Assembly: GCA_946560065.1 (NCBI GenBank)
Contig: CAMNUE010000013.1
Coordinates: forward strand, 43,738 to 75,737
DNA length: 32,000 nucleotides
Origin: an uncultured bacterium
GTDB lineage: Bacteria > Bacillota_I > Bacilli_A > RF39 > UBA660
Direction: 5' to 3'
The notes below the pieces were generated by a model, which was not told where the DNA came from, ran no database searches, and worked only from the letters and a program-made list of their open reading frames with translations. Positions 17,714 to 32,000 of this stretch are shown piece by piece. The first letter of the stretch is position 1. Every line of letters starts with the position of its first letter. The position numbers were made by a program, and so were the translations under genes.

Positions 17714-19063
17714 GTGGTGAATAGCAAAATGAATGAAGATAAAAAGGGAAAAAATAATTCTGAGTATTTAAATAATAGTAGTAATTTTGATTCTATTAAG
17801 GTTAACTTTTCATGGAAGAACAAAAATAGTAAAATGAAATTGAATCATAATGGTAAAATGGAAGAAATAGAAATACTTGATGATTTAGATGATGATTATT
17901 CTGATACGATCACTGATGATTCTTTTGATAAAGTTACTAATGCTTCTAATAAAAATGAAGATATAGAGAATTCTAAAGATGACAATTTTAAAATATCAGA
18001 TATTGTTGAAGAAGAGGATTCTAGAAAAAAGAAATCGTCATTAAATAAAATTTATATTAGTTTTGAAACTAGGGTTGGAGTGGCAATTTTCTTTATTTTT
18101 ATATTATTTCTTTGGGCATGTATATTGATATTGCAAGCAATGAATTTTGGTAAAAAAGAAGTAGTTACTTATAGTGAAACTAGTAAGATAGATTATTCAG
18201 TTTGTGTTACAGGTACTGATTATTATGCAAATACATGTTTAGATGATGGTATGGAATATGTTAGTATGATAACTGATAAGATAAAGGCTAATTTTAAGTA
18301 TAACGTAGATTTTTCTACTAACATAGATTATGATTTGTCTTATCATGTAGTAGCAGTTACTAGAATTTATGATGGTATTAATAGTAAAAAATTATTATAC
18401 GAAGATGAAGATCTTTTAATCAATAAAACAAAAATTACAGGTACAAATAGAAAAATAGATTTCAGTAAAAATGTGGACATTGATTTTAAAGAAAAAAATA
18501 ATTTTGTTACTAATTATAGAACTAATTTTTCACTTAATGCGTCAGCTTCTTTAGAAGTTATAATGTATTTAGATGAACCTAGTGAGACTAGAAAAGTTGC
18601 TTCTATTGTGATGCCTTTAGGAAACCAAACATTTGGTATTACTACTAATATTATAACTAATCAAGATAAAAGTGTTGAGATAGATAATAATATTTGGAAT
18701 GAATATAATATTACTTGTGCTATTATTGGTACTTTATTAATTATTGTTGCACTTTTAATATTATTTAGATTAACTAGAATGGTTTTAAGTGTTACTACTA
18801 AGAGAAGTGAGTATCAAAAGACTTTATCTAGAATTCTTAGAGATTATGATAGAATCATAGTAATTGCTAGAAATGGTTTTGTTACGACCCGTGAGAAGGC
18901 TGTTACAAAAGTTGATAGTTTTAATGAATTATTGGATGCAAGAAATGCTCTTAATAGGCCAATTGTCTACTCAAGAATTAACGATATAAAGAGTGAATTT
19001 ATTGTTGAAGATGATGATAGACTTTATAAGTATGTTATGAAGGAAGCAGATTTTTCAGATTAG
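17714..19063 (+). CDS. Two-TM membrane protein with an acidic N-terminus (hypothetical)
   Basis: It has a D/E/N/S-rich N-terminus, helix 1 VAIFFIFILFLWACILILQA, an extracytoplasmic segment of about 190 aa, helix 2 ITCAIIGTLLIIVALLILF, and a C-terminal domain of about 90 aa. The start is uncertain (GTG 17714 or ATG 17729). Confidence 0.65.
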   Translation: MVNSKMNEDKKGKNNSEYLNNSSNFDSIKVNFSWKNKNSKMKLNHNGKMEEIEILDDLDDDYSDTITDDSFDKVTNASNKNEDIENSKDDNFKISDIVEEEDSRKKKSSLNKIYISFETRVGVAIFFIFILFLWACILILQAMNFGKKEVVTYSETSKIDYSVCVTGTDYYANTCLDDGMEYVSMITDKIKANFKYNVDFSTNIDYDLSYHVVAVTRIYDGINSKKLLYEDEDLLINKTKITGTNRKIDFSKNVDIDFKEKNNFVTNYRTNFSLNASASLEVIMYLDEPSETRKVASIVMPLGNQTFGITTNIITNQDKSVEIDNNIWNEYNITCAIIGTLLIIVALLILFRLTRMVLSVTTKRSEYQKTLSRILRDYDRIIVIARNGFVTTREKAVTKVDSFNELLDARNALNRPIVYSRINDIKSEFIVEDDDRLYKYVMKEADFSD

Positions 19064-19072
19064 AGGAATGTT

Positions 19073-19201
19073 ATGAATAGTGTTAATTCTAAAAATATGT
19101 TTTTGATAATAATGCTTGTTGTTATTTTAGGGATAGTTGCATTATATGCGATTGTCTCTGGTGGTCCTGATTCCTTATATATGGATTTACCAATTAGATA
19201 A
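19073..19201 (+). CDS. Small (42 aa) single-TM protein, not in the supplied ORF track
   Basis: GAGGA (19063-19067) is 5 nt before the ATG. The product is MNSVNSKNMFLIIMLVVILGIVALYAIVSGGPDSLYMDLPIR. It starts 10 nt after the upstream stop and is followed by a terminator. Confidence 0.5.
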   Translation: MNSVNSKNMFLIIMLVVILGIVALYAIVSGGPDSLYMDLPIR

Positions 19202-19209
19202 TATTTTAG

Positions 19210-19243
19210 CTAGATAGTTTTGAATTATCTAGTGTTCTTTTTT
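19210..19243 (+). terminator. Rho-independent terminator (moderate)
   Basis: Stem ctagata/tatctag with a 9-nt loop, and a T-rich tail ending in T6 (19238-19243). Confidence 0.45.
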
Positions 19244-19258
19244 ATTTAGAAAAAAATG

Positions 19259-19287
19259 TTTACTTTTTCTTTGTTTTATGTTATGAT
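19259..19287 (+). promoter_or_regulatory. Sigma-A type promoter for rplS
   Basis: TTTACT (19259-19264), a 17-nt spacer, then TGtTATGAT (19279-19287). About 80 nt of leader precedes rplS. Confidence 0.5.
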
Positions 19288-19368
19288 TTAAGACGTCTAG
19301 TGGAATGATCCGCTTATCTTTTATGATTATGATCATTTGGGAAAAATAATTAGAGAGGAGAACTTAGA

Positions 19369-19713
19369 ATGAATATTATAGACAAAATTAATGCAAAACA
19401 AATTAATCCTAACGTTCCTGAATTCCGTGTTGGAGATACAGTTAGAGTTGACGTTAAGATTATCGAAGGTAAAAGAGAACGTATCCAAGCTTTTGAAGGT
19501 GTTGTAGTTGCTCGCCGTGGTGGATCAGTTAGCGAAACTTTTACAGTTCGTAAAATGTCTAGTGGTGTTGGAGTAGAGAGAACATTCCCTATGCATTCAC
19601 CTAAAGTTGCTGGTATTACAGTTGTACGTAGAGGTAAAGTTAGACGTGCTAAACTTACATTCCTTAGAGGTATGGTTGGCGGATACCGTATTAAAGAAAG
19701 AGGACAAAAATAA
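19369..19713 (+). CDS. rplS: 50S ribosomal protein L19
   Basis: '[36 protein letters not shown]...ETFTVRK' is canonical L19. RBS AGAGGAG. Confidence 0.98.
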
Positions 19714-19739
19714 AAATAAGGCCAAGGCCTTATTTTTTG
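19714..19739 (+). terminator. Rho-independent terminator after rplS
   Basis: ataaggc-caag-gccttat followed by a T-run. Confidence 0.75.
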
Positions 19740-19753
19740 TTTAGGTGGTTGTT

Positions 19754-20266
19754 ATGGAAAGTACTAGCAAAGATAATTTTAAAAAGTTTTTTAAGGAATA
19801 TTTCCCTTATATAGGGATAATAGTGTTTGTTATTTTAATAAAACAATTTGTTATGTCGCCAATTATAGTTAATGGTGAAAGTATGATGAAAACGCTTCAT
19901 GACAAAGATGTTATGATACTTGATAGAATAAGTTACAGAGTGTCGGATATAGATAGATTTGATATTGTTGTTGTTGATGAAGGTAGCGAATATATTATTA
20001 AAAGGGTTATTGGTTTACCAGGTGAAGAAGTTTCATGTGAAGATGGTAAATTATTTGTTAATGGTAAAGAGATTAAAGATAGTTATGGTATTGGTTTAAC
20101 AGATGATTTTGTTTTCGAAGTACCTAAAGGTGAATATTTTGTTTTAGGTGATAATCGTGAAAATTCTATGGATAGTAGATATTTTGGCTCTTTTAAGAAA
20201 GAAGATATCTTAGGTAAAACAAAATTAGTTTTATTTCCATTAGATAGGTTTGGAGATAAGAAATAA
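19754..20266 (+). CDS. lepB: Signal peptidase I
   Basis: N-terminal TM helix, catalytic 'NGESMMKTL' (Ser), 'IKRVIGLPGE' (Lys box) and 'GDNRENSMDSRYFG'. AGGTGG precedes ATG 19754. Confidence 0.93.
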   Translation: MESTSKDNFKKFFKEYFPYIGIIVFVILIKQFVMSPIIVNGESMMKTLHDKDVMILDRISYRVSDIDRFDIVVVDEGSEYIIKRVIGLPGEEVSCEDGKLFVNGKEIKDSYGIGLTDDFVFEVPKGEYFVLGDNRENSMDSRYFGSFKKEDILGKTKLVLFPLDRFGDKK

Positions 20267-20267
20267 G

Positions 20268-20291
20268 AAGCGACTTTTTAAAGTCGTTTTT
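20268..20291 (+). terminator. Rho-independent terminator after lepB
   Basis: cgactt-ttta-aagtcg followed by T5. Confidence 0.6.
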
Positions 20292-20330
20292 ATGTTATAA
20301 TAAAATTATTATGGATGGAGTGATGTTTAA

Positions 20331-20804
20331 TTGAATTCTACTGAAGAAAAGATATTAAAAATATTTAATGATAATTATGATAAAAGAATTTGTGTTATTG
20401 GAACTACTTGTACAGGAAAAAGTACGATTATAAATAATACTGGTATGGGTGTTGATATGGATAGTGAGATATTTCCTTTACTAACAAAAGAAGAAACTGA
20501 TTATGTATGTAGTGATCCTTGGACAGAAGAAATCGGGAAGATGATGGATGAACTTGTTAGAAGCAGATTATCTATTAAGAAAGGTGTTCCAATGTTTGGT
20601 ACAGTTTTATTAGACTGTGATTTGATAGTATATTTACATATAACTGATGAGCTTTTAAAAAAAAGATGCGCTCTTAGAGAAGCTAATTTTATAAATGCTA
20701 AGAATATGCAAGAAAAGATTGTTGAAGAAATAAATGGTTCTGGTATAGATGTTATTACAGTAGAAGTAGTGGAAGATGAGAAAAAGATTGGAAGAATTAG
20801 ATGA
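20331..20804 (+). CDS. Small P-loop NTPase, nucleoside/nucleotide-kinase-like
   Basis: Walker A 'VIGTTCTGKST' is near the N-terminus of a 157-aa protein. It uses a TTG start 10 nt after GGAG, and its stop overlaps the next start (ATGA). Confidence 0.6.
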   Translation: MNSTEEKILKIFNDNYDKRICVIGTTCTGKSTIINNTGMGVDMDSEIFPLLTKEETDYVCSDPWTEEIGKMMDELVRSRLSIKKGVPMFGTVLLDCDLIVYLHITDELLKKRCALREANFINAKNMQEKIVEEINGSGIDVITVEVVEDEKKIGRIR

Positions 20805-21574
20805 AAGCAATAGATAATACAATTAAATATTATGAATTAATAATGAAATACGAGAATACTGATTATTATGATAGATATTTTTTACCAGATGGGTATCATT
20901 ATGAATTTTATAAAGATGGAGATATAGATGACTGGATTAATATTCATCTTGAGAGTGGAGAGTTTACTTCTGTTTCTAGAGGATATGAGATATTTCATGA
21001 TTTTTATGATAGTTTTATTGATGATTTAGATAAAAGATGTGTTTTTGTAGTAGACAATAAGAGTGGTGAAAAGATAGGTACAGCTACTGTCTCCCTTCTT
21101 AAGAAAGCAGAATATGATTGTTTTGCCGCGGTTGATTGGGTTGCGATTAAAAAGAATTATCAAGGTAAAGGATTAGCTCGTCCTTTAATTAGTGAAGTTC
21201 TAACTATAGCGAAGAAGAATTTACATAAGCAGATTATTTTACATACTCAGACAACTACTTGGTTGGCAGCAAAACTTTACTTAGATTTTGGTTTTATTCC
21301 AGTTAATTTAGAAGAAGTTGTTGGCTGGGGAATTTTGAAGGAACTTACTAATCATAAGTCTTTAAAAGATATTGAAGCAGTTTCTGAAATATATGACTTA
21401 CGAAATGTGGAGATAGAAAGACAATTATCTTTGATATATAGTAGTGAATTTCAATTTGAAGTATGGTATAGGAATGGTTTACATAATGTTTATGTTTACT
21501 CTAATGGTGTATCTGATGAATATGAATATTTTATTAATGGTAAACAGATAAGATTAGAAAAAGTTTATAAGTAA
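20801..21574 (+). CDS. GNAT-family N-acetyltransferase with extra N- and C-terminal regions
   Basis: Acetyl-CoA motif A 'WVAIKKNYQGKGLARPLISEVL' and 'AAKLYLDFGF'. Confidence 0.75.
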   Translation: MKAIDNTIKYYELIMKYENTDYYDRYFLPDGYHYEFYKDGDIDDWINIHLESGEFTSVSRGYEIFHDFYDSFIDDLDKRCVFVVDNKSGEKIGTATVSLLKKAEYDCFAAVDWVAIKKNYQGKGLARPLISEVLTIAKKNLHKQIILHTQTTTWLAAKLYLDFGFIPVNLEEVVGWGILKELTNHKSLKDIEAVSEIYDLRNVEIERQLSLIYSSEFQFEVWYRNGLHNVYVYSNGVSDEYEYFINGKQIRLEKVYK

Positions 21575-21594
21575 TACTTTAGGAGGTAGTTTAA

Positions 21595-22446
21595 ATGATT
21601 GATTTATTATACGAGAAAACAGAAGATGAGATAGAGCTTCAAGGAACATATTTTGATTCAAAGAAGAAAGATATTTGTGTTTTATTTGTACATGGACAGG
21701 CTCAGAGCATTCTTAATAATTCTTTTGCATATAAGTTAGGTAAATATTTAAGTAGTAGAGGAATTAGTTTTTTATATGGACATAATCGTGGTCATAACTA
21801 TATTAATTGTCTGCATAAGGGAGACGGAAGTTTACTTATAGAAGGGGCTACTTTTGAGATATTTGAAGATTCATTAAAAGATATTGATGTTTGGATGAGA
21901 AAAATTAAAGAATATGGTTATAAAAAGATTATATTGATGGGACATAGTTTAGGTTGTAATAAGGTACTTTATTATTTAAATAAGAGAGAAATGGTAGATG
22001 GATTAATTCTTGCGAGTGCTCCTGATATGGTGGGAATTACTAAGAAGGAAGAAAGTAATTTTTTAGAGATATTTAAAGAGGCAAAGGAAGCTGTTGAAAG
22101 TGGAGAATCGAGGAAGATACTTTCTAGCTTATTAGGAGAGACTGATTATATTAGTGCAGGTACTTTTCTTAGTGAAAGTCTAGAGGAATCTAATATCGAT
22201 AATTTTCCAATTGAAAGAAATCCAGTTGTTTTTGAACAATTATCTAAAATTAATATTCCAATATTGTCATTTGCAGGTAGTTTAGAATATCCTACTTATT
22301 TAAGGCAAGAACTTTTAAAGGAAAAAGCTATTAATTCAGAAGATTTTACTTATAAAGTTATTGATGGTGCAAATCATTTTTATTATGGTTGTGAAGATGA
22401 GTTAAATGAACTTTTATATAATTGGATTAAGAAATTTATGAATTAA
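21595..22446 (+). CDS. Alpha/beta-fold hydrolase
   Basis: 'VLFVHGQ' oxyanion region, nucleophile elbow 'GHSLGCN', and C-terminal 'GANHFY' (a His candidate). RBS AGGAGG. Confidence 0.75.
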   Translation: MIDLLYEKTEDEIELQGTYFDSKKKDICVLFVHGQAQSILNNSFAYKLGKYLSSRGISFLYGHNRGHNYINCLHKGDGSLLIEGATFEIFEDSLKDIDVWMRKIKEYGYKKIILMGHSLGCNKVLYYLNKREMVDGLILASAPDMVGITKKEESNFLEIFKEAKEAVESGESRKILSSLLGETDYISAGTFLSESLEESNIDNFPIERNPVVFEQLSKINIPILSFAGSLEYPTYLRQELLKEKAINSEDFTYKVIDGANHFYYGCEDELNELLYNWIKKFMN

Positions 22447-22472
22447 GATTTATATTTTTAGGGTGATTATAG

Positions 22473-23528
22473 ATGGTAAAGGATTTATGTTTTGAGATAA
22501 TTGAAAGATGTCCAAATAATTGTGTATTTTGTTCATCTAATTCATGTATCGATAAGAAAAACATTATTAAATTTGAAGACTTTAAGCGAGTTATTGACTA
22601 TTTTTTAAGTAGTGGAGGAATAGGAGAATTATCACTTTCTGGAGGAGAACCGTTTCTTCATCCTGATTTATTTCGAATGGTTGCTTATGCGAAAGGTAAG
22701 GGTATACGAACGGTTATTTTTACTAGTGGAGTGAAAATACGTGAGAAGTTAGATGAAGAAGTAGTTAAATACTATGAGAAGAAAAGGGAACAAGATATTT
22801 TGGAAATCTTAGAGCATGAACCTTGGAATAAGAGATTAATCAATAATATTAAGCATTATTATGATAATTTTCTACACCCAAGTAAGTTTTCAGAAATCAG
22901 CAAAAATGATTTTATAAGTTTGAAAGAGATGGGACTTGATAAGATTGTTTTCGATTATCAGGGGTATGAGGCAGAAACAGATCATTATTTGATGGGAAGA
23001 AGTGAAAGCAGTAGGCAGGCAGCCTTAGATTCAATGTTTAATGCTGCTGTAGTAGGATTGAACGTTGATGTACATTTTGTACCTATGAAACCTAATTATT
23101 TGGAAATATTAGATATATTAGAGATGCTTGAAATACCTGGAATTAAAAATATTAGTTTTTTAAATTTTGTTCCACAAGGAAGAGGATTACAAAATAAAGA
23201 AAAATTACAGTTAGATGAAGAAGAGAAACAAGAATTTTTTGAATTGTTAAAAAGAAGTAGTGAAGTTTATAGTGGGAATGATAGAAGAGGTATTCCTTTA
23301 CAAGGGGATACTACTCATAAATGTAATGCAGGACTTGAAAAATTAGATATAAAGTATGATGGTACTGTTTTACCATGTCCTGCTTTTAAGGAATTGTCTT
23401 TTGAAGAATGTCAAAAATATGGAATTAAACTATATAGTATATATGACGATTTAGAGAAGATTAGAATTCCTGGTAAGGGTACTAGAAGTGAACCTCTTTG
23501 TAATAAAGTTTATAGAAAAAATAAATAA
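22473..23528 (+). CDS. Radical SAM enzyme with a C-terminal SPASM/twitch-like Cys region
   Basis: CPNNCVFC (CX3CX2C, 22509-22532), 'LSLSGGEPFLHPD', and C-terminal 'CNAGLEKLDIKYDGTVLPCPAF'. Confidence 0.8.
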   Translation: MVKDLCFEIIERCPNNCVFCSSNSCIDKKNIIKFEDFKRVIDYFLSSGGIGELSLSGGEPFLHPDLFRMVAYAKGKGIRTVIFTSGVKIREKLDEEVVKYYEKKREQDILEILEHEPWNKRLINNIKHYYDNFLHPSKFSEISKNDFISLKEMGLDKIVFDYQGYEAETDHYLMGRSESSRQAALDSMFNAAVVGLNVDVHFVPMKPNYLEILDILEMLEIPGIKNISFLNFVPQGRGLQNKEKLQLDEEEKQEFFELLKRSSEVYSGNDRRGIPLQGDTTHKCNAGLEKLDIKYDGTVLPCPAFKELSFEECQKYGIKLYSIYDDLEKIRIPGKGTRSEPLCNKVYRKNK

Positions 23529-23584
23529 AATAAAATAAAAATATTTTTATTTACTTATAGTATAAATTGAAATGGGGAAGATAA

Positions 23585-24118
23585 ATGGAATTAAGGTTTG
23601 AAGAAGTTAATAGAGATAATTTAGAAATAGCTGTTAAAGTACAAAATGAAATATTTCCTTTGGAGAATGGTAGAGATAATTTTATCGAAGGAATCCAGAA
23701 TAATCCTTATCGTAAGGAAATGATTAATTTTATTACTTATACAGATGAAGAACCAGTTGGAGTAGTAGGTCTTTATTCTTATAATGAATATCCAAATGAT
23801 GCGTGGCTTAGTTGGTTTGGGGTATTGGATAAGTATCGAAATAGAGGTTATGGTTCTCTGATGTTTAATTTTTTCGAAGATTTGGCTAAGAAGAAGGGGT
23901 ATACTGCAGTCAGAGTTTATACATCAGCTGAATTTGAGGATGCGATTAAGTTGTATCAAAATAAAGGTATGATTAGTGAAAGATATAGTAATGAATTAGA
24001 GTGCTCAGAAATTAATGAAGAAACTATTATATTTTCAAAATCTTTAACTAATAAAAAGATAGATTTATGGAATAATAAGTTTTTGGAATTGACTGCTCAA
24101 ATTGAAAAGGAAAAGTAG
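23585..24118 (+). CDS. GNAT-family N-acetyltransferase
   Basis: 'FGVLDKYRNRGYGSLMF' (Q/RxxGxG/A motif) and 'AIKLYQNKGM'. Confidence 0.8.
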   Translation: MELRFEEVNRDNLEIAVKVQNEIFPLENGRDNFIEGIQNNPYRKEMINFITYTDEEPVGVVGLYSYNEYPNDAWLSWFGVLDKYRNRGYGSLMFNFFEDLAKKKGYTAVRVYTSAEFEDAIKLYQNKGMISERYSNELECSEINEETIIFSKSLTNKKIDLWNNKFLELTAQIEKEK

Positions 24119-24132
24119 AGTTGGTGATTTGA

Positions 24133-24873
24133 TTGAAGATAGTATCATGGAATATAAATGGTTACCGTAGTGCAGAGAAGAGTAATAGTTTAAGTGAACT
24201 TATTTCTTTGAATAATCCTGATATAATTTGTTTACAAGAGATAAAAATGAACGAGGAAATTTTAGAAAATTATGGGTATAATTGTTATTATAATTTTGCA
24301 GAAAAGCGAGGTTATAGTGGTGTTATGATTTTTACTAAGAGGAAGCCTTTGAATGTTATTTCAAAACTGGGATTAGATAGATTTGATGGTGAAGGTAGAT
24401 TTCTTTTATTAGAATATGAGAAGTTTATTGTTATTAATATTTATATACCTCATGGTGGTAGAAAGAAGGAAAATCATCCCTATAAGTTTGAGGCAATTAA
24501 TAAACTCTTGGAACTTATTAAAGGTCTAAAAAAAGATATTTTTATTTGTACTGATTTTAATATTGCGCATACTGAGAAAGATGTAAAAAATTATAAGACT
24601 AATTATCATAATAATATGTTTAGTTATGAAGAAAGGTCTAAAATAGATGAACTTTTGAGTTTAGGATTAGTTGATAGTTTTAGAGAGATTAATCAAAATG
24701 GAGATGTTTATTCTATGTGGCCGAATGGTTTTAATGCCAGAGAGCGAAATATGGGCTGGAGAATTGATTATATCTTTGTTTCTGAGGGATTGAAGGATAA
24801 TATTAAAGATGTAAATTATTTAAAAGAACAGTTTGGTTCTGACCATTGTCCATGTGCTTTGGATGTGTTATGA
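24133..24873 (+). CDS. xth: Exodeoxyribonuclease III / AP endonuclease family
   Basis: TTG start giving 'MKIVSWNINGYRSA', then 'ICLQEIK', 'DFNIAHTEKDV', 'WRIDYIFVS' and 'GSDHCP'. Confidence 0.9.
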   Translation: MKIVSWNINGYRSAEKSNSLSELISLNNPDIICLQEIKMNEEILENYGYNCYYNFAEKRGYSGVMIFTKRKPLNVISKLGLDRFDGEGRFLLLEYEKFIVINIYIPHGGRKKENHPYKFEAINKLLELIKGLKKDIFICTDFNIAHTEKDVKNYKTNYHNNMFSYEERSKIDELLSLGLVDSFREINQNGDVYSMWPNGFNARERNMGWRIDYIFVSEGLKDNIKDVNYLKEQFGSDHCPCALDVL

Positions 24874-24901
24874 TATTGGTGTGATAATTGGAGGAATATC
24901 T

Positions 24902-25381
24902 ATGATAGTAAATTATTCTGATGAAGAAGTAATAAAAGGAAAAAAGTCTATATTTCTAGCGGGACCAACCCCAAGGGGAGAAGGTGTTGTTTCCTGGAGA
25001 ACAGAAGCTTGTAGTATTTTAGAAAGAATTGGATTTGATGGAGTTGTTTTTGTTCCTGAATATTCAACTTGGAAGCCAAAGGAAGATTATGTTGATCAAG
25101 CAATGTGGGAGCGAGAAGCTTTAACAGATGCAATAGTTATTGTTTTTTGGATACCAAGAAAATTACCAGAAATGCCAGCTTTCACAACTAATGTTGAGTT
25201 CGGTTATTGGTTACGTAGTGGAAAAGTTATTTATGGTAGACCAGATGATGCGGCAAAAATTAAATATTTAGATTGGTTGTATAAATTAGATTATGAAAAG
25301 GAACCTTTTTCTAATTTAGAGAAGCTTTTAAAAGAAGCAATAGAGCTTTCAGACGAGCTGTTTAGTTTAAATAAAGATTAG
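24902..25381 (+). CDS. Nucleoside 2-deoxyribosyltransferase-like fold protein
   Basis: 'SIFLAGPTPR', 'VFVPE', 'WEREAL..AIVIVFWIPR' and 'FTTNVEFGYW' resemble the NDT-like (Nuc_deoxyri_tr2-type) family. GGAGGA (24890-24895) precedes ATG 24902, so I reject the ORF-track start at 24833 inside xth. Confidence 0.6.
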   Translation: MIVNYSDEEVIKGKKSIFLAGPTPRGEGVVSWRTEACSILERIGFDGVVFVPEYSTWKPKEDYVDQAMWEREALTDAIVIVFWIPRKLPEMPAFTTNVEFGYWLRSGKVIYGRPDDAAKIKYLDWLYKLDYEKEPFSNLEKLLKEAIELSDELFSLNKD

Positions 25382-25394
25382 TTATTAGAGAAAT

Positions 25395-26123
25395 GTGGCG
25401 ATAAATTTGTTTGATGAGTATTGTAATAAGATTAAAAAATTAAGTAGCTTTGAGAAAAATGATATTATGACTGAGGAGTTTGAATTAATAAGTTCCAATA
25501 ATATGAGGATATATTATGCTCCACATAATGAAATTGTTAATAGAGATGCTAAAGTATTTATAGTAGGAATTACACCTGGATGGACACAGACTAGTATTGC
25601 TTATAAAACCGCCTATGAAGGTTTGGTTAATAAATTAGATGATGAGTCTATAAAAAAGAAATGTAAGAGAAACTCTAGATTTGCAGGTAGTATGAGAAAG
25701 AATTTAATTGAGATGTTGGATTGTTTAAAATTAAATGAAAAGTTAAAACTTATTAGTTGCTCGGAGTTATTTGAAGATAAAGATTATTTACTACATACAA
25801 CATCAATGATTCCCTATCCAGTTTTTGTTAATGGAAAAAATTATACAGGTTCGAATCCTAAAATTTTAGACAATGTAATTCTTAGAGAATATTTGAAAAA
25901 GTATTTTTATAAAGAGGTAGAATTGTTAGCTGATGCTTTGATAATTCCTCTTGGAAAATCAGTAGAAGAAGTATTATAGTTAATGATAAGGGAGAAGTTA
26001 GTTAAAAGAAAACAGAGTTTGTTAGGATTTCCGCATCCTTCAGGAGCAAATGGACATAGGAAAAAGCAGTTTGAAGATAATAAAGAGAGTTTAATGAGAA
26101 TTGTGGATGATTATTTTAAGTAG
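25395..26123 (+). pseudogene. Uracil-DNA-glycosylase-superfamily gene interrupted by an in-frame TAG (25977-25979)
   Basis: The N-terminal part has 'VFIVGITPGW' (a UDG motif-A-like position). The same frame continues after the TAG for 47 codons and contains 'GFPHPSGANG' (motif-B-like HPS), with the final stop at TAG 26121-26123. Confidence 0.65.
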
Positions 26124-26137
26124 TTTAAGGAGATTAT

Positions 26138-26626
26138 ATGGAATTAGTGAATATTGTAGATGAGTCTGGAAATAATACTGGGCAAATTGTAGATAGAAAA
26201 ACAGTTCAAGATTCTTCTTTGCTTCACTGGGAAGTAGTAATATTTCTTATTAATGATATGGGACAGATGTTACTTGAGATGAGAAGTCCTAATAAAAGGT
26301 TTAATCCTAATAAATGGGCTCCTTGTGCTGGAGGAGTAGTAGCAGGAGAGAATCTTTTTGATGCAGCTCTTAGAGAATTAGAGGAAGAACTTGGAATAGA
26401 AGTTTTAGAAGAAGATTTGAATGTATTAGAAGAAAATGATAACTTAACTAGATTTTATTATGTTTTTTGTAATAAGAAAGAAGAGGAATTTATAATTCAA
26501 AAAGAGGAACTGTCTTGTGTTAAATGGTATGATATTTCAGAAGTTATTGAGATGATTAAAAATAGAGATTCAATTACTATTAAGGAAGATAAATTATATT
26601 TACTTGAGAGATTAAATGCTTTATAG
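26138..26626 (+). CDS. NUDIX hydrolase
   Basis: Complete Nudix box 'GGVVAGENLFDAALRELEEELGI' (GX5EX7REUXEEXGU). RBS AAGGAG. Confidence 0.9.
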   Translation: MELVNIVDESGNNTGQIVDRKTVQDSSLLHWEVVIFLINDMGQMLLEMRSPNKRFNPNKWAPCAGGVVAGENLFDAALRELEEELGIEVLEEDLNVLEENDNLTRFYYVFCNKKEEEFIIQKEELSCVKWYDISEVIEMIKNRDSITIKEDKLYLLERLNAL

Positions 26627-26660
26627 AGAAGGAACTAGAGAGTTAGTTCTTTTTCTTTTT
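26625..26660 (+). terminator. Rho-independent terminator ending the nine-gene cluster
   Basis: agagaaggaacta/tagttctttttct (13 bp with two G-U pairs), loop gagagt, then TTTT. Confidence 0.55.
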
Positions 26661-26727
26661 GGTATGAAGTTATTTTCAAAATAGCAATTTTGTGGTATTA
26701 TATAAAATACTTTTTGGGGGAATATTG

Positions 26728-28584
26728 ATGAGAATCAAAAAACTAGGAATATTGAATGAGAAATATTTGAAAAATGAAGAGTTACTAAAGACTTTAAAAC
26801 AAACAGGATTTCAGTGTTATTGTACTGATTTGGCACGTTTAACTGAGACGCCCTTTGATCAATCTACTGGTTTTGGAGCATATTGGTTTGATGGAGAACA
26901 TATTACTACTAAGAAAAATAAAACGATAAGTAATTATGCGAATTATGTTGATAAGGGTGGAGCACTGTCTTATGTAAATAATGCTAATTTTAAAGCTGGA
27001 GTTAGAATTGCATTTTCTTTTGATGATATTGAAGATTTTAATTTTGATGAATTAGAAAATTTGAATCTTGAATACCCACTTACAGTTATAGGTGGTAGAG
27101 TTGGAGAAACATTTGATAAGTTGTTTGAAAGTAAAAGTAAGTTAATTGCGACAACAGGTAGAACGCACTTTGTAGACGATAAAGAGTATCGTGAGTATGA
27201 AGCATTTGGAATTAGATTTATTAGAAAAAGATGCAAGGTTCAACCAAAATTATTAAGTGATGGAACATTAAGTAAAAAAGATGAAGATGTTTATTTAAGA
27301 GTTGAGAGTATTCCGTTGACTATTGATGACGAAGAGAGATTGGTATATTCATCAGTTATATTATTTGGTGCTGTATTAGATAGTAAGGGAAATAGATTTG
27401 AGAATAGTGAACTATATAAGAATTTAAATGGAGAATTTTTAAAAAGTATTAATGATGAATTAGAACATGTTTCTCCAGCATTATTGTTTAATGGAAATGT
27501 AAAAGATGAATGTAATCGTTATAATTTTAAATTTAATTCATTAACAGAAGAAGATATAATAGAGATATGTATAAACAGTAATATTGCAGTATTTTTACAT
27601 GGTCCAACTGGAGTTGGTAAGACAGAAAGAATGATTGCATTAGATAGAAATTTGGAATTAGTTGATTTTGGTTGTACTAGTTCGGATGGATTTACAGGGA
27701 TTATTGCGAAAGATTTCAACTCAAAAGAATTATTCTTATATGAACCTTACTGGTATAAAAGTTTTTGTGCCAAGTGTGAAGCAGAACCAGAAAAAATTCA
27801 TATCTTATTTCTAGAAGAGTTAACTAACGCGAGAAGTGATGTCCAAAAAGTGGCATTTGAGGTAACTCTTAATAAAACATTAACAAATAGTGGTTTTAGA
27901 TTGAAATTACCAGAAAATGCTGTTGTATGTGCTGCGGGTAATGAAGCTAGTGAATCAAAATCAGCTACAGCATTGAGCGAGCCATTATTTGGAAGATTTG
28001 CTCATGTTTATATCGAAACTGATTCTGAAAATTGGTTAAAATGGGCTTTAAATAGAAAAAAAGAGGGAAGACAATTATTATATAAGAAACATGAAGAGAA
28101 TAATACAATTCATCCAGCAATAATTGATTATGTAAGAGTTAATGGAGATAGAGTTTTAAGAACACAATATAATGGTGTTACTCCTAATGCTGATCCTAGA
28201 AAGTGGGTCCTTGCATCAAAAGCTTTATATGAAAGTAATAATCCAAATGTACTTCGTGCCTTTATTGGAGAAGAACTTACACAAGATTTTATAAAATTTT
28301 GTAAGATGAGATTAATAACTGTAGATGATGTTTTAAACGATAGATGTAAGGTTGAAGATGTAGCACTTGATTCTTCATTAAGATGGTATACGACAATTTG
28401 TTTAAGTACAGTTGATGATGAAAATGTAGATAAAGTAAGAGAATTTGTTAGTGGTTTAGGTAAAGAGTTTTTAGCGGTTTTTGATTATGAATGGTCAAAA
28501 GATAATGACGAAAGAATTATGAAATTATATAGTCAGTCTAATAAAGCACTAGTTAAAAGGTTAGAATTAGATGGAAATAGATGA
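26728..28584 (+). CDS. AAA_5 (MoxR/McrB-like) ATPase with a roughly 290-aa unrecognised N-terminal domain
   Basis: GGGGGA precedes ATG 26728 (MRIKKLG). Walker A GPTGVGKT (27601-27624), Walker B HILFLEE (27799-27819), and sensor-1-like 'VVCAAGNE'. Its stop overlaps the next gene's start by 14 nt. Confidence 0.8.
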   Translation: MRIKKLGILNEKYLKNEELLKTLKQTGFQCYCTDLARLTETPFDQSTGFGAYWFDGEHITTKKNKTISNYANYVDKGGALSYVNNANFKAGVRIAFSFDDIEDFNFDELENLNLEYPLTVIGGRVGETFDKLFESKSKLIATTGRTHFVDDKEYREYEAFGIRFIRKRCKVQPKLLSDGTLSKKDEDVYLRVESIPLTIDDEERLVYSSVILFGAVLDSKGNRFENSELYKNLNGEFLKSINDELEHVSPALLFNGNVKDECNRYNFKFNSLTEEDIIEICINSNIAVFLHGPTGVGKTERMIALDRNLELVDFGCTSSDGFTGIIAKDFNSKELFLYEPYWYKSFCAKCEAEPEKIHILFLEELTNARSDVQKVAFEVTLNKTLTNSGFRLKLPENAVVCAAGNEASESKSATALSEPLFGRFAHVYIETDSENWLKWALNRKKEGRQLLYKKHEENNTIHPAIIDYVRVNGDRVLRTQYNGVTPNADPRKWVLASKALYESNNPNVLRAFIGEELTQDFIKFCKMRLITVDDVLNDRCKVEDVALDSSLRWYTTICLSTVDDENVDKVREFVSGLGKEFLAVFDYEWSKDNDERIMKLYSQSNKALVKRLELDGNR

Positions 28585-29752
28585 GATTGTAAAAAAGCTT
28601 TTAATTAGATATCCGTTATTTGGAAATGTTATTGCTAACTTAAAATTTAAGTTTACAAATGAGAATGTTCCAGCTTCTGCTTTTACGGATGGAAAAAATA
28701 TTTTTTATAAACAAGAATTTATTGATGATTATTCTGATGCAGAGAAAGAATTTATTATAGCCCATGAAATATTTCATATTGTATTGAAGCATATATTTAG
28801 AAATCTTGGAAAAGATTCGGATTTATTAAATTATGTCGAAGATGCTATTATTAATCAGATGCTAGTTAGAGATGGCTTAACAATGCCTGAGGGACTTGTA
28901 AATGTTGAAGATGCGCTTGATTATTCTGTAGAAGAATTGTATATGAGATTTTTACCTAGACTTGATGAAATTAAAGAGTGGATGGGTGTTAATACTTATC
29001 ACATTGATCTTTCTAATTTAGATGATTTATTTGCTGAGATGTTTGGCGATGATGTTCAAGAGATGATGAGTCAAAATGCTGGCTTGAGAGATGATCTCTT
29101 GAATGATTTTAAGGATGAATTAAAGTATTTTGCGTATTCTAATAGTGGTACAGAAGGAAAAGAGGAAACTTTAGGTGATATTGGTAGTGCTAGTCCGTTA
29201 CTTTGTTGGAAGGAACTTTTGAAAGCAAATATAAATAATCCAGAAGAAGTTGTTACTTTGTTTTATGAAGTGGAAATGGATGGAATCGTAAGACGAGAAG
29301 AAAAATCTGAACCATCATTCTCTGAAAGTGAAATAATTATCGATACTAGTGGTTCTATGAATTTGGAGAAGCTTAAAGCAATATTAAGAGAATGTAAAAA
29401 CATTTTAAAAGATAGTAGATTAAAAATAGGTTTTTGTGATACTAGGTTTTATGAGTGGATTGATGTTTCAGATTGTAGTGTTATTGATAAAATCAGTATA
29501 AAGGGAAGGGGTGGAACTGATTTTGGTTTAATGGCTGAGAGCTTTTCTGGTAATGTTGATAATAAGATAGTAATTACTGATGGTTATGGCTCTTTTCCCG
29601 AGAATTATAAAGATGTTTTGTGGATTATTGTTGATTATTATTTTCCATCCTTTGTTGAAACTGAAGTCAAAGAAAAAGATATTAATTATATATTTATTAA
29701 TGAACAAGATGTAGTTGTTGAGAAAAACAAGTGTTTAGTGCTTACAAAGTAA
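28571..29752 (+). CDS. DUF2201-type protein: N-terminal putative Zn-metallopeptidase plus C-terminal VWA-like domain
   Basis: 'YPLFGNVI...AFTDGKNIFY...IIAHEIFHIVLKH...VEDAIINQ' with HExxH at 28763-28777. MIDAS-like 'IIIDTSGSM' (DTSGS at 29342-29356), 'GRGGTDF', 'ITDGYG' and 'VLWIIV'. Confidence 0.85.
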   Translation: MEIDEIVKKLLIRYPLFGNVIANLKFKFTNENVPASAFTDGKNIFYKQEFIDDYSDAEKEFIIAHEIFHIVLKHIFRNLGKDSDLLNYVEDAIINQMLVRDGLTMPEGLVNVEDALDYSVEELYMRFLPRLDEIKEWMGVNTYHIDLSNLDDLFAEMFGDDVQEMMSQNAGLRDDLLNDFKDELKYFAYSNSGTEGKEETLGDIGSASPLLCWKELLKANINNPEEVVTLFYEVEMDGIVRREEKSEPSFSESEIIIDTSGSMNLEKLKAILRECKNILKDSRLKIGFCDTRFYEWIDVSDCSVIDKISIKGRGGTDFGLMAESFSGNVDNKIVITDGYGSFPENYKDVLWIIVDYYFPSFVETEVKEKDINYIFINEQDVVVEKNKCLVLTK

Positions 29753-29761
29753 TTAGAAAAC

Positions 29762-29786
29762 AATGCTAATTTTATTATATAAGGAA
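29762..29786 (+). repeat. Direct repeat copy 1 (AATGCTAATTTTATTATATAAGGAA)
   Basis: 23 of 25 nt are identical to 29921-29945, which lies 159 bp downstream. Confidence 0.85.
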
Positions 29787-29846
29787 GTTTATATTTTTAA
29801 TATTAAGGATTTGATGTTAAAGTAAATTATAAAAAGTATTAATTGG

Positions 29847-29879
29847 GAAGAAATACTTTGGTATTAGCTTCTTTTTTTT
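29847..29879 (+). terminator. Rho-independent terminator of the ATPase/VWA operon
   Basis: gaagaaatac-tttg-gtattagcttc (stem with one bulge) followed by T8. Confidence 0.6.
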
Positions 29880-29920
29880 AATTTGTAGATGTTATATACT
29901 AAATGTGTCACATAAATTGT

Positions 29921-29945
29921 AATGCTACATTTATTATATAAGGAA
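29921..29945 (+). repeat. Direct repeat copy 2 (AATGCTACATTTATTATATAAGGAA)
   Basis: See copy 1. Confidence 0.85.
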
Positions 29946-29968
29946 TTATAGTAATATTAATTAAATTT

Positions 29969-29977
29969 TGATATAAT
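29969..29977 (+). promoter_or_regulatory. Extended -10 promoter (TGaTATAAT) for the HD-GYP-like gene
   Basis: A perfect TGnTATAAT within TTTGATATAAT, about 75 nt upstream of the start codon. Confidence 0.5.
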
Positions 29978-30051
29978 AGTTTGTAATCTTCATACTGAGA
30001 ATGTGTGTAGGGTTGTGAATTAGAACAAGATAGTTTGAAAGGGTGGTTTTT

Positions 30052-31350
30052 TTGAAAAAAATTGTATCTGTAAGTGATTTAAAAGTTGGATATATATTAC
30101 AAGAAAGTATTAAGACGCGTGATGGAAAGGATTTAGTTACTAAAGGCTCTGTCTTAACTGAAAGTATTATTGAGAGACTTAGAAATTGGTATGCAAAGGA
30201 TGATTGCATGATTAGTGTTGATGATGATAATATTGATAATGTAGACAATAGTGATTCAATAGATGATGATGTGATGGAATTTGATGCTGCCAAGTTTAAA
30301 GAAGTTCAGGATAAAACGATTAGATGTCTTGAAGATGTTTTTAGTTGTGAAGAAGAAGCTTCGGAAGTAGCTTTGAATACTCTCAAGCCATATGCACTTT
30401 CTATGTCTGCTAATTTGAAAGGTTTGGCTGATATTCCAAAGAAGGTTTTAAAAGAACAACATGTAAGTACTAAAGCTGGTCATTGTTTTCGTGTAGCAGA
30501 AATGGTTGTTGTTTTGACTAATTTGTATAATAATAATTTGCCTAAAGATAAGAAAATTTCATTAGAAACGGTTTGTATGGCAGCTTTGTTACATGAATAC
30601 GGAAAGAAATTTGAAGATGATGTTGTTACTTTGAGCAGATTAAAAAGAAGGGCAGCATCTGTTTTTAAAAAAAAGTTTAATGATTTTTCAATCGATAGTA
30701 ATCATCATACTGCTCATGCGTACCTTGCTTTAAAAGATAAGGTTAGTGATGATGTAAGACTTACAATTTTGGGTCGAGGAATTCCTGCAATAAATGGTAA
30801 GAATAGTTCTAAAAAATGGATTAAAGGCGCACAGATTATTTTTTTGTGTGATACATATGATACTTTATTAGAAAGTGTTTTGGAAAAAGATATGTTATCT
30901 CCTTTTGAGAATGTTATTTCTTTTATGGGACAACTCGCTCACAATAATTCTTTAGATGGGGATTTGTATAAACTTTTTTTGAAACATATACCTTTGTATA
31001 CAGATGGTGAAAAGGTTTTATTGTCTTCTGGTGAGTATGCTGTTGTTATTAATCGTTCAGAAGCTTTTCCTACAAAACCAGTTGTTTTAACATTACCTCC
31101 TGATGCTCCTAAATTGATTGATTTAAGTAAAACAACTAATATTGTTATTAGAAGAATTGTTCAATCGGAAGAAGAAACAGCTAATAAAGTAAGTGCATTA
31201 CAGAAAAGTCAAACGAAGAATATTGAAGTTTCTGAATCTGTTGATACTGAGAACTTACAGGAGAAAGTATCTGAATTATTAGTGCAGGAAGAAAAAGAAA
31301 AGGATGATGTTCCTAAATCTTTTGTAAAGAGTTTTTTTAGAAAAAAGTAG
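30052..31350 (+). CDS. HD-GYP-family protein with degenerate catalytic motifs
   Basis: The N-terminus 'VSDLKVGYILQESI..RDGKDLVTKGSVLTE..IERLRNW' and the C-terminus 'IPLYTDGEKVLLSSGEYAVVIN...PTKPVVL' are typical of the family. The core has 'HCFRVAEM' and 'AALLHEYGK' (HE instead of HD, 30592-30597) and no HHExxDGxGYP, but 'FLCDTYDTLL' is retained. I favour TTG 30052 after AAGGGTGG; GTG 30043 is also possible. Confidence 0.75.
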   Translation: MKKIVSVSDLKVGYILQESIKTRDGKDLVTKGSVLTESIIERLRNWYAKDDCMISVDDDNIDNVDNSDSIDDDVMEFDAAKFKEVQDKTIRCLEDVFSCEEEASEVALNTLKPYALSMSANLKGLADIPKKVLKEQHVSTKAGHCFRVAEMVVVLTNLYNNNLPKDKKISLETVCMAALLHEYGKKFEDDVVTLSRLKRRAASVFKKKFNDFSIDSNHHTAHAYLALKDKVSDDVRLTILGRGIPAINGKNSSKKWIKGAQIIFLCDTYDTLLESVLEKDMLSPFENVISFMGQLAHNNSLDGDLYKLFLKHIPLYTDGEKVLLSSGEYAVVINRSEAFPTKPVVLTLPPDAPKLIDLSKTTNIVIRRIVQSEEETANKVSALQKSQTKNIEVSESVDTENLQEKVSELLVQEEKEKDDVPKSFVKSFFRKK

Positions 31351-31407
31351 TTGGCTTAATAATTTTATTAGTTTTAATATGTTTTTTGTAATTAAAGGTA
31401 GTTATAA

Positions 31408-31434
31408 AGAGTAGATTTTAATCTACTCTTTTGT
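31408..31434 (+). terminator. Rho-independent terminator
   Basis: aagagtagat-ttta-atctactctt followed by TTTG. Confidence 0.65.
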
Positions 31435-31538
31435 GTTATAATAATTGTTACATTAGGATAATTCATGCATCAGATTGAAATTTTTATAGAAATGTAGTTG
31501 TAGTATTTGTCATAATATGAATTCAAAAGTTAAATATA

Positions 31539-31547
31539 TGATATAAT
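31539..31547 (+). promoter_or_regulatory. Extended -10 promoter (TGaTATAAT)
   Basis: A perfect TGnTATAAT 36 nt upstream of a small ORF. A second such element, TGtTATAAT, is at 31434-31442. Confidence 0.4.
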
Positions 31548-31582
31548 GTAGAAGTAGTTTACTTAAAAAGGAAGTGACAGGT

Positions 31583-31702
31583 ATGTCTAAAAACAATAGA
31601 AAAAAAAGAATGAATTCTGATAATGTTAAAGGTTATCAACGAGAAATTATTTCATGGTTGATTACGATTTATTTAAGAACACCAATAAACCATTATAAAT
31701 AA
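31583..31702 (+). CDS. Possible small basic protein (39 aa)
   Basis: AAGGAAG is 8 nt upstream. The product is MSKNNRKKRMNSDNVKGYQREIISWLITIYLRTPINHYK. There is no homology evidence. Confidence 0.3.
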   Translation: MSKNNRKKRMNSDNVKGYQREIISWLITIYLRTPINHYK

Positions 31703-31901
31703 AGGAGATTCTCGAATTTAGATCTTGCACATTTTCATTAAAAAATGGATAAAATCATTAAAAAAATAGTAATAATATAGTAATTTTGGTATTATTTATT
31801 ATAGGAATTAGAAAGGTGATTACGACATTTAAGAACTTAAAAAATTGCACATTTAACATTAATTACATTTTTAATATACAATTAATTTGGAGTGTGATTT
31901 T

Positions 31902-32000
31902 ATGGATAAATATAATATTAAGGAATTAGAAGAAAAACTTAATAGATGTAGAAATATGAAACTTGAAGATGTATCTTTAGAGGATGTAGATGAAATAAGT
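31902..32000 (+). CDS. Hypothetical protein, 3'-truncated by the window edge
   Basis: TGGAGTG precedes ATG 31902 (MDKYNIKELEEKLNRCRNMKLEDVSLEDVDEIS...), and the frame is open to the window end. Confidence 0.45.
   Translation, partial: MDKYNIKELEEKLNRCRNMKLEDVSLEDVDEIS

Follow-up and report, generated by a model that had tools for sequence, protein, structure and literature searches.

A predicted ATPase-metallopeptidase pair of gut Bacilli with a putative lectin-like domain that appears to be a retroelement target in a sister clade

An operon of two overlapping genes

The window analysed here is a stretch of 32,000 nucleotides from an uncultured bacterium of the UBA660 group (Bacilli_A; RF39), taken from contig CAMNUE010000013.1 of assembly GCA_946560065.1; all positions below are those of the window and all features lie on its plus strand. 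It carries, between 26728 and 29752, two genes for which we describe a predicted AAA+ ATPase with an additional N-terminal domain (gene 1) and a protein combining a candidate zinc peptidase with a VWA domain (gene 2). In the NCBI records of an uncultured Bacilli metagenome-assembled genome (MAG) they are named 'hypothetical protein' and 'AAA family ATPase'. An earlier note, made from the letters alone, had singled out the pair as a self-contained operon and had proposed for it a role in conflict or phage defence. It had overlooked three things on which most of what follows turns: the N-terminal domain (the first ~270-285 residues of gene 1), the phage relatives of the pair, and a diversity-generating retroelement (DGR) found in a sister clade.

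Gene 1 (26728-28584) encodes 618 amino acids (aa) from the ATG at 26728, which is also the start chosen by gene callers; the longest open reading frame (ORF) begins at the GTG at 26692 and is 630 aa long. Gene 2 (28571-29752) encodes 393 aa. Both ORFs and their 14-nt overlap (28571-28584), already described in the earlier note, were read directly from the sequence: the ATG of gene 2 stands at 28571 and the TGA of gene 1 at 28582-28584. The overlap recurs in orthologous loci as 14, 11 or 4 nt. In six metagenomic contigs of the same species, gene callers give identical 618-aa and 393-aa products, both ORFs being intact.

The operon is isolated on its 5' side by the intrinsic terminator of the upstream NUDIX gene (26625-26656), which was called by the scan with 14 pairs followed by a T-run (-14.2 kcal/mol, z = -3.35). 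Downstream of it come a putative promoter that matches the consensus (26673-26701; TTTTCA, 17-nt spacer, TATTAT, with a TG extended -10) and a GGGGG ribosome-binding site read from the sequence (26716-26720). On the 3' side, a hairpin (29845-29873) and a run of eight T form a weak terminator-like element closing the operon (29845-29879; -6.8 kcal/mol, z = -1.74), which the scan did not call. The two terminators said in the earlier note to bracket the pair are therefore of unequal standing, the upstream one being solid and the downstream one weak.

A predicted MoxR-type ATPase and its zincin-VWA partner

For both proteins the domain assignments of the earlier note, an AAA_5/MoxR-type core and DUF2201 domains, were borne out by searches with hidden Markov models (HMMs), in which the Pfam matches exceeded their cut-offs. 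The AAA_5 match of gene 1 is marginal (24.8 bits for a cut-off of 22, aa 300-436 of the 630-aa ORF). Against the phage family phrog_1297, gene 1 scored 1.5e-43 over aa 287-612 of the same ORF. The characteristic motifs are present: a Walker A motif (GPTGVGKT, 27601-27624), in which G292, G297 and K298 are invariant among 52 homologues; a Walker B motif in which E-E replaces the usual D-E (HILFLEE, 27799-27819; H358, F361 and E364 invariant); and a segment (27931-27999) that comprises the sensor-1 region AAGNE (N405), within VVCAAGNE, and the putative arginine finger LFGRF (R423). In this last segment A403, G404, N405, P419-F421 and R423 are invariant in the same 52 homologues; the sensor-1 and arginine-finger roles of N405 and R423 are those that we presume by analogy with MoxR motifs.

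The AlphaFold2 (AF2) model of gene 1 (predicted local distance difference test, pLDDT, 85.6) begins with a beta-rich N-terminal domain, continues with the AAA+ core and ends in a helical region. In Foldseek it matched NorQ (9qhd, 9qh8 and others), including NorQD complexes, the MoxR protein CHU_0153 (2r44) and MCM, with E ~1e-9 and target TM-scores (TMt) of 0.46-0.50 for NorQ and CHU_0153. The bpMoxR profile gave 12.6 bits on gene 1, below its cut-off of 27. Sequence searches with the pair against solved structures returned marginal matches only (selecase 0.13, McrB 0.47). Taken together, motifs and model of gene 1 predict that gene 1 encodes a MoxR-type AAA+ ATPase capable of ATP hydrolysis.

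Gene 2 matched DUF2201_N (PF13203; 5.4e-18, 66.0 bits for a cut-off of 23.2) and then, in the order peptidase-VWA, the DUF2201 VWA-like family (PF09967; 1.3e-07, 32.2 bits for a cut-off of 26.4); its match to the phage family phrog_1314 was 2e-42. The zinc/catalytic motif HEIFH (28763-28777) and H74 lie within 28763-28792, and H65, E66, H69, H74 and D91 are invariant among 53 homologues. The metal ion-dependent adhesion site (MIDAS, 29342-29584) is made of DTSGS (29342-29356), GRGGT (29504-29518) and TDG (29576-29584), with D258, S260, S262, G312, G314, T336, D337 and G338 invariant in the 53 homologues and T316 nearly so. All the motifs listed in the earlier note, i.e. those just given in the two proteins together with GRGGTDF, ITDGYG, FTDGKNIFY and EDAIINQ, were found where it had placed them.

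The peptidase and VWA domains are separated by a variable linker (aa ~146-250, 29006-29320), modelled with a pLDDT of 35-58 and subject to length insertions in homologues. In the AF2 model of the whole gene 2 protein (pLDDT 74.9) a confident zincin domain is followed by this low-confidence linker and by the VWA domain. The zincin domain resembles selecase/minigluzincin; the VWA domain matched in Foldseek CLCA1, BatB, integrin I domains and the Rea1 MIDAS, and full-length matches were obtained with phage 'metallopeptidase/VWA-like' proteins. Gene 2 can thus be described, from its profile matches and its model, as a predicted HExxH zincin peptidase fused to a VWA domain with a complete MIDAS. 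In the searchable open-access literature we found no direct biochemical characterisation of such a peptidase-bearing VWA variant, in agreement with the earlier note, which knew of no experimentally defined role for it, and no functional study of DUF2201.

Both genes are under constraint. The ratio of non-synonymous to synonymous substitutions (dN/dS; rough values, dS being near saturation) was 0.08-0.09 in the AAA core, 0.14-0.19 in the peptidase domain, 0.15-0.35 in the VWA domain, 0.39-0.52 in the linker and 0.26-0.49 in the N-terminal domain. The active-site residues of both proteins are invariant in the 52-53 homologues, down to ~31% identity. That the pair should be a decaying remnant without current function is hardly credible in view of these values, all well below 1, of the invariant active sites and of the intact ORFs in six strain-level contigs; what speaks for it is a single locus, L011, where the orthologous ATPase (8158-10014) is split into ORFs of 152 and 317 aa, a split that may reflect a frameshift, a pseudogene or an assembly error.

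The earlier note had drawn an analogy with MoxR-VWA machines, and the analogy stood up: as in NorQ-NorD, RavA-ViaA and CbbQ-CbbO, the ATPase fold (NorQ, CHU_0153) goes with an adjacent VWA partner bearing a MIDAS. The variable linker of gene 2 is moreover reminiscent of the NorD linker remodelled by NorQ; in NorQ-NorD a finger of the VWA protein enters the AAA pore and the motor remodels the linker. The differences are that in NorQD, RavA-ViaA and CbbQO the VWA partner has no peptidase, the ATPase has no lectin-like domain and client genes are found nearby, whereas no client gene accompanies the window pair. This structural similarity of the ATPase to NorQ, together with a weak match to phrog_249 ('porphyrin biosynthesis', E = 0.056), could be read as the mark of a metal-insertion or chelatase machine of the CobST, BchID or NorQD type, the 'peptidase' domain serving only to bind metal. 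We consider this very improbable: the search for NCBIfam equivalogs gave no match for the pair, no cobalamin, chlorophyll or nitric oxide reductase genes lie nearby, and the catalytic Glu of HExxH is invariant.

A candidate lectin-like domain at the N-terminus of the ATPase

The beta-rich N-terminal domain of gene 1 (aa 1-268, 26728-27531; hereafter N-domain) has no Pfam match in the window protein, and its profile found nothing among Protein Data Bank sequences. The fold search with the whole model was rejected as a guide to the N-domain, since it was uninformative, being dominated by AAA+ matches. An HMM built on the N-domain did recover a large family of 3550 cluster representatives, many of them stand-alone proteins of 270-350 aa, others with tandem copies or with fusions to BspA-type leucine-rich repeats, ankyrin or DUF4116 repeats. 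One relative, P0264, matches DUF6273 at 26.3 bits for a cut-off of 23.5, and the sister-clade ATPases P0411, P0413, P0461 and others carry precomputed matches to the same family (PF19789). DUF6273 is described in two papers as C-type-lectin-like and as a DGR target in receptor-binding proteins of gut phages. We therefore regard the N-domain as a divergent, putative DUF6273-type module with a C-type-lectin-like fold, the fold being taken from the literature on DUF6273. The ATPase homologues examined in phages, cyanobacteria and proteobacteria, which are 336-394 aa long, do not have it.

The DUF6273 targets on record are tentaclins and Mtd-like proteins, i.e. extracellular receptor-binding proteins of virions. 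The likeness to gene 1 lies in the N-domain relatives that reach the DUF6273 model; the difference is that in gene 1 the domain belongs to a cytoplasmic ATPase fusion with no evident signal peptide.

Retroelements that target the same domain in a sister clade

The sister clade is made of ATPases 32-38% identical to the window protein. The first DGR case came from an IMG/VR contig (L037), in which a reverse transcriptase (RT) gene lies immediately upstream of a full-length ATPase (33% identical), with a 133-aa ORF and a DUF2201 protein. An 83-nt repeat (6575-6657 and 8159-8241 of that contig) joins the region just upstream of the RT to ATPase codons 70-98; its two copies differ at 14 positions, 11 of which are adenines in the upstream one. 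A scan of metagenomes with the ATPase alignment brought 80 further loci, and in 11 of them, as in L037, the ATPase gene is directly preceded by one for a homologous RT (46-80% identity). Pairs of template repeat (TR) and variable region (VR) were identified in L037, L057, L065, L071 and L118, where TR adenines account for 56 of 65 mismatches, and in L061, where they account for 8 of 12. The relaxed search in three other RT-positive loci (L069, L076 and L101) gave no convincing pair.

In all six pairs the VR corresponds to N-domain residues ~68-111 (a patch of ~28-35 residues) and ends at G-(A/V)-R-P-A-L. Two non-adenine differences recur at the 3' end of the TR/VR pairs, which we take to fit boundaries of the IMH/IMH* (initiation of mutagenic homing) type. 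A conserved ORF of ~135 aa, in the position of Avd, precedes the TR. In the sister clade, a single patch of the N-domain thus appears to be rewritten by a DGR. The loci concerned are on chromosomes: L071 has rplU and rpmA as flanking genes; beside L118 lie dus and a gene for a class II aminoacyl-tRNA synthetase, and this locus is orthologous to one without RT; and L063, beside hpf and secA, has RT remnants. None of the ATPases of the DGR loci matched the proteins of our first homology search. For comparison, a 2017 survey of DGRs counted N-terminal VRs as rare (three cases), and Midasin-like AAA targets of DGRs are on record in bacteria of the Candidate Phyla Radiation.

The segment of the window protein equivalent to the VR, by alignment to the sister clade, is aa ~66-96 (26923-27015), which ends at an invariant G-V-R (R93). 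When 33 orthologues of the window's own clade were compared, aa 75-90 proved to be the entropy maximum of the whole 618-aa protein (2.67 bits versus 0.2-0.5 in the AAA core), and these residues immediately precede the G-V-R that aligns with the end of the VR. Hence, the patch rewritten by a DGR in relatives appears to be also the fastest-evolving one in the window protein. The window copy would be a 'static' version of the module, devoid of DGR.

A few features of the sister clade deserve mention here. There are often several ATPase paralogues per DUF2201 gene; for instance, L027, L029, L042 and L044 have two or three tandem sensor-ATPase paralogues and one DUF2201 gene. An ORF of 118-137 aa without family match stands between the ATPase and DUF2201 genes; it is absent from the window's clade. 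Stand-alone N-domain paralogues of 311-329 aa were found just downstream of the DUF2201 gene in all three RT-less relatives looked up (L125:14306-15241, L126:14202-15143 and L127:14242-15231), with at most 62% identity to the N-terminal part of sister-clade ATPases, and such a paralogue could be the fourth member of the cassette in this clade. Lastly, proteins P0412-P0446 represent dozens of clusters at 90% identity, mostly with a single member, that are 93-97% identical to the L071 ATPase; this diversity could be driven by the DGR or could simply be strain diversity.

Occurrence of the pair among gut Bacilli

A conservation scan with one genome per species found 24 loci, all from uncultured gut Bacilli or Erysipelotrichales-type MAGs. 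The ATPase and DUF2201 genes are adjacent, and mostly overlapping, in nearly all of them; the exceptions, L026 and L030, are among the most distant loci and have no ATPase of the family beside the DUF2201 gene. In loci L007-L029 the pair alone is kept, the other genes of the window not being syntenic. The view of the earlier note that the two genes form a self-contained operon is thereby confirmed, the pair being all that is conserved across 24 species.

The surroundings change from species to species. They include rbgA, genes for a gyrB-family protein, a FabG-type reductase, a YbaK-type editing protein, a DHH phosphoesterase (nrnA-type) and an NrtR-like regulator, and occasionally Bro-N, RhuM or integrase genes. 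What the earlier note had described as an accessory stretch of nucleotide- and DNA-handling enzymes turned out to be specific to the window's species, none of these neighbours being conserved in the 24 others, and the 'DNA-handling neighbourhood' consequently carries no functional signal. For the same reason we rejected another candidate function, a DNA-protein crosslink protease of the Wss1/Cdc48-like sort acting with the ExoIII, uracil-DNA glycosylase (UDG)-like, NUDIX and deoxyribosyltransferase-like neighbours.

The chromosomal housekeeping context seen in many species is what one would expect if the pair were a maturation chaperone that remodels one cellular complex, the peptidase removing a propeptide and the N-domain recruiting the client. 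Most characterised MoxR-VWA pairs are indeed maturation factors; in addition, the window shows no anomaly of GC content or composition and the pair is stable within the species. However, no client gene is conserved beside the pair in any of the ~100 loci examined, a fixed client would hardly call for a DGR acting on the domain that recruits it, no segment evolves faster than the recognition patch, and the same pair belongs to the core genes of lytic phages and is found on conjugative plasmids (see below). We judge this explanation, the main rival of the one preferred below, to be unlikely.

Phage and plasmid relatives

The matches of the pair to phage families (PHROG) are far stronger than its Pfam matches. 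By tblastn, the DUF2201 protein was found in 115 phage records and the ATPase in 462-623, of which 462 for the ATPase core; they include N4-like phages, PA5oct-type and other jumbo phages, SCTP-2, cyanophage S-TIM5 and Vequintavirinae. No phage record covers the N-domain. The earlier note would have given up its proposal had the pair proved a routine part of a prophage or conjugative module: the same pair is indeed known in phages, yet the window copy is chromosomal and has no phage genes around it. Judging from homology, the pair is not an orphan oddity and appears to be the cellular counterpart of a phage-conserved pair.

The closest parallel in organisation is with N4 gp24 and gp25 (phrog_1297/phrog_1314), two of the 14 core genes of N4-like phages, expressed from middle transcripts and with no function assigned. 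The AAA core and C-terminal region of the first protein and the full length of the second are homologous to those of the window, and the two genes are in the same order and directly adjacent. On the other hand, identity is ~22-28%, the N4-type ATPases (~340-400 aa) lack the 268-aa N-domain, and the window pair is chromosomal without surrounding phage genes. In Klebsiella phage Pylas an intron-split NTPase gene directly precedes the DUF2201 metallopeptidase gene; this N4-like ATPase gene (L031:3018-4887) is annotated with an intron encoding an HNH homing endonuclease. A separate matter is that RefSeq phage records (e.g. NC_049444, NC_019516 and NC_071039) call the DUF2201 metallopeptidase/VWA protein itself 'HNH endonuclease', as does the label of phrog_1314; the GenBank versions of those records say 'metallopeptidase', and the label is probably a propagated mislabel.

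For jumbo phages, a MoxR protein and a vWA protein with an N-terminal metallopeptidase were described, from computational analysis, by Iyer et al. (2021; PMC7824862), who saw in them a chaperone and its cochaperone and proposed for them a role in the assembly of virions and the accompanying proteolytic processing. The two-protein architecture is the same as that of the window pair; the jumbo-phage pair has a virion context and no N-domain, and the reverse is true of the window pair. Outside phages, the same pair is found on plasmid pSYSA of Synechocystis, surrounded by toxin-antitoxin genes; a conjugative plasmid of Burkholderia also carries it, beside VirB genes of a type IV secretion system (T4SS).

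A phenotype, the one experimental handle that we found, has been reported for one of the phage ATPases. In a HIDEN-SEQ preprint (10.1101/2025.11.20.689424), bas54_0063, the MoxR protein of Vequintavirus Bas54, is one of two anti-defence genes required against DS-28, a predicted defence system. In Bas52, a sister phage almost identical to Bas54, the corresponding gene bas52_0063 is 99.1% identical to it in DNA, and its product matches the gene 1 core (BLASTP 2e-18); Bas52 also encodes a protein with DUF2201_N and DUF2201 domains (bas52_0055), 3.6 kb from the ATPase gene and on the opposite strand. The Bas52/Bas54 ATPases are thus homologous to the core of gene 1, without N-domain and without an adjacent DUF2201 gene. 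That of Bas54 is reported to be needed together with an unrelated gene, and the direction of the conflict, phage versus host, may be opposite to that of a chromosomal copy.

These relatives raise the possibility that the pair derives from mobile elements, as a counter-defence or establishment module achieving ATP-dependent proteolysis of a defence factor of the host or of a rival, and that the chromosomal copies are domesticated or residual cargo. The strength of the PHROG matches and the number of phage records for both proteins, the plasmid-borne pairs among toxin-antitoxin genes and beside a T4SS, and the anti-DS-28 phenotype all go in this direction, as does the location of the window pair 1.9 kb from a strain-variable insertion hotspot (see last section). 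Against it, the conserved part of the island in the window holds neither phage nor plasmid genes, and the N-domain is absent from all isolated phages. A scan of IMG/VR yielded no relative of the gene 2 subfamily and, of full-length ATPase relatives, just one, at the border of a lysis cassette of a prophage. Furthermore, the relatives looked up have SecA, TopA, L21/L27 and the like as flanking genes, and their contigs (40-522 kb) are bacterial. We hold a mobile-element origin of this kind to be distinctly unlikely.

A possible sensor-motor-peptidase module

The reading that we favour, and to which we give an even chance, is that of a module coupling recognition by the N-domain to an ATPase motor and to a VWA-coupled zinc peptidase, with a role related to conflict. 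This role is favoured because of the DGR in the sister clade, the fast evolution of the equivalent patch in the window's clade, the multiplicity of sensor paralogues and the reported counter-defence phenotype of a phage homologue. The ligand of the N-domain patch would be a macromolecule of variable nature; the most plausible candidate is a protein from a genetic element that invades or competes. The ATPase ring would engage the VWA domain of gene 2, as in NorQ-NorD and RavA-ViaA, and ATP hydrolysis would either present the captured ligand to the tethered peptidase or relieve an autoinhibition of the peptidase through the variable linker; the outcome would be a site-specific cleavage. The end ultimately served could be host immunity, counter-defence or the processing of a cellular client.

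Several points weigh against the sensor-motor-peptidase reading. The peptidase activity of gene 2 is assumed from its motifs and from a weak selecase/M48 similarity, and the contact between ATPase and VWA is drawn by analogy. The window protein is below the DUF6273 (PF19789) threshold; neither a homologue of the RT nor a repeat of the N-domain resembling a TR is present in the window, and no strain-level single-nucleotide polymorphisms were found in the patch. The scan of PADLOC-DB 2.0 gave for gene 1 only a P-loop-level match to DolB (E = 0.0057 over 18 residues) and nothing for gene 2, and in the various species the pair lies mostly beside housekeeping genes instead of in defence islands; both speak against the classic defence-island picture. 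The Bas54 screen did not report a DUF2201 gene as required (10.1101/2025.11.20.689424), and the phage phenotype may not transfer to the window pair, the phage homologues having no N-domain. The conflict hypothesis of the earlier note thus comes out divided, reinforced by the N-domain and by the DGR of the sister clade, weakened by the missing PADLOC match and by the housekeeping neighbours.

Close in logic are the MoxR-vWA ternary conflict systems (Kaur et al. 2020; Dore et al. 2024), which have a peptidase effector and, in some members, a DGR that diversifies a C-lectin domain. They share with the window pair the association of MoxR, vWA and peptidase, and with the sister clade the DGR; their lectin-type domain would have its counterpart in the N-domain. 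They differ in three respects. Firstly, they include a third signature protein (VMAP, beta-propeller, FtsH or iSTAND), whereas the window's clade has no third conserved gene. Secondly, their lectin domain is on the vWA protein and their effectors are usually trypsin- or caspase-like; here the putative lectin-like domain is on the ATPase and the zincin on the vWA protein. Thirdly, they are found mainly in multicellular cyanobacteria, actinobacteria and proteobacteria, and the window pair in gut Bacilli.

A broader, and clearly more tentative, proposal can be made from this comparison. The pair and its sister forms of three and four genes may constitute a compact family, hitherto unrecognised, of immune modules that act as 'antigen sensors' in the cytoplasm of unicellular gut Firmicutes, and in which the lectin-like domain captures an invader protein and the motor triggers or feeds the peptidase. 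Some lineages would update the sensor by means of a DGR and others, including that of the window, by ordinary mutation or with paralogues; phages would carry the motor and peptidase without the sensor as counter-measures, N4 gp24/25 and the Bas54 MoxR protein being examples.

The MoxR plus peptidase-vWA pair is already on record, and so are DGR-diversified lectin sensors beside MoxR-vWA systems. In open-access text, the supplementary tables of DGR surveys being outside this scope, we did not find the lectin-like domain on the ATPase of a DUF2201 pair, its dedicated DGR or its occurrence in unicellular gut Bacilli. Among the AAA+ systems still poorly understood, few are as widespread as the MoxR-VWA pairs. 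By marking ~30 residues that would contact the ligand, the DGRs of the sister clade could turn an anonymous 'DUF' pair into a testable system, for which the sites of the ATPase, the peptidase and the MIDAS are defined and a counter-defence phenotype of a phage homologue has been reported. If the favoured reading is true, DGR-assisted cytoplasmic sensing would extend beyond multicellular bacteria and a core gene pair of phages would be linked to a cellular counterpart.

Chromosomal surroundings of the pair

Positions 18571-32000 of the window are 100% identical to a 136-kb gut-metagenome contig from ENA. The pair is located chromosomally, with rimM, trmD, rplS and lepB upstream and, in other strains, rbgA, rnhB and topA downstream. 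The content of the lepB-rbgA interval is species-specific: genes for GNATs, a hydrolase, a radical-SAM protein, ExoIII, a deoxyribosyltransferase-like protein, a UDG-like protein and NUDIX precede the pair, which is followed by the gene for a 435-aa protein.

Variation between strains starts at ~31657. To the right of this point were found T4SS coupling-protein and TrbL genes (L004 and L005), serine-recombinase elements with an AAA_13-type or a 1245-aa protein (L002 and L003), or Bro-N plus Abi_alpha (L001). All these variants lie before rbgA, so that the breakpoint marks an insertion hotspot. We considered and rejected the pair being cargo of a prophage or of an integrative and conjugative element, because the island is unchanged in strains with three different right-hand insertions. 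DNA-level searches of the pair against phages and plasmids gave no match.

Some minor observations concern the individual neighbours. The 435-aa protein (30043-31350) is kept at the species level only and has no counterpart beside the pair in other species; the earlier note had taken it for a degenerate HD-GYP protein, an assignment that we abandon, its only family signal being a sub-threshold YfbR-like HD match (E = 0.0057). Gene calls vary for two genes of the island: the ExoIII-like one (24133-24873) is called as 208 aa in L001 and L006 and as 246 aa in L002-L005, and the UDG-like one (25395-25979) as 170 aa in L001, L003, L004 and L006 and as 218 aa in L002 and L005. Further upstream, a separate YgjP-like/SprT-like zincin gene (14007-14645), unrelated to the pair, lies among genes for a SpoU methylase and a CYTH protein, rimM and trmD. 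Finally, a 172-nt stretch at the breakpoint (31655-31826) has a second copy, 83% identical, at 14425-14595 of L002.

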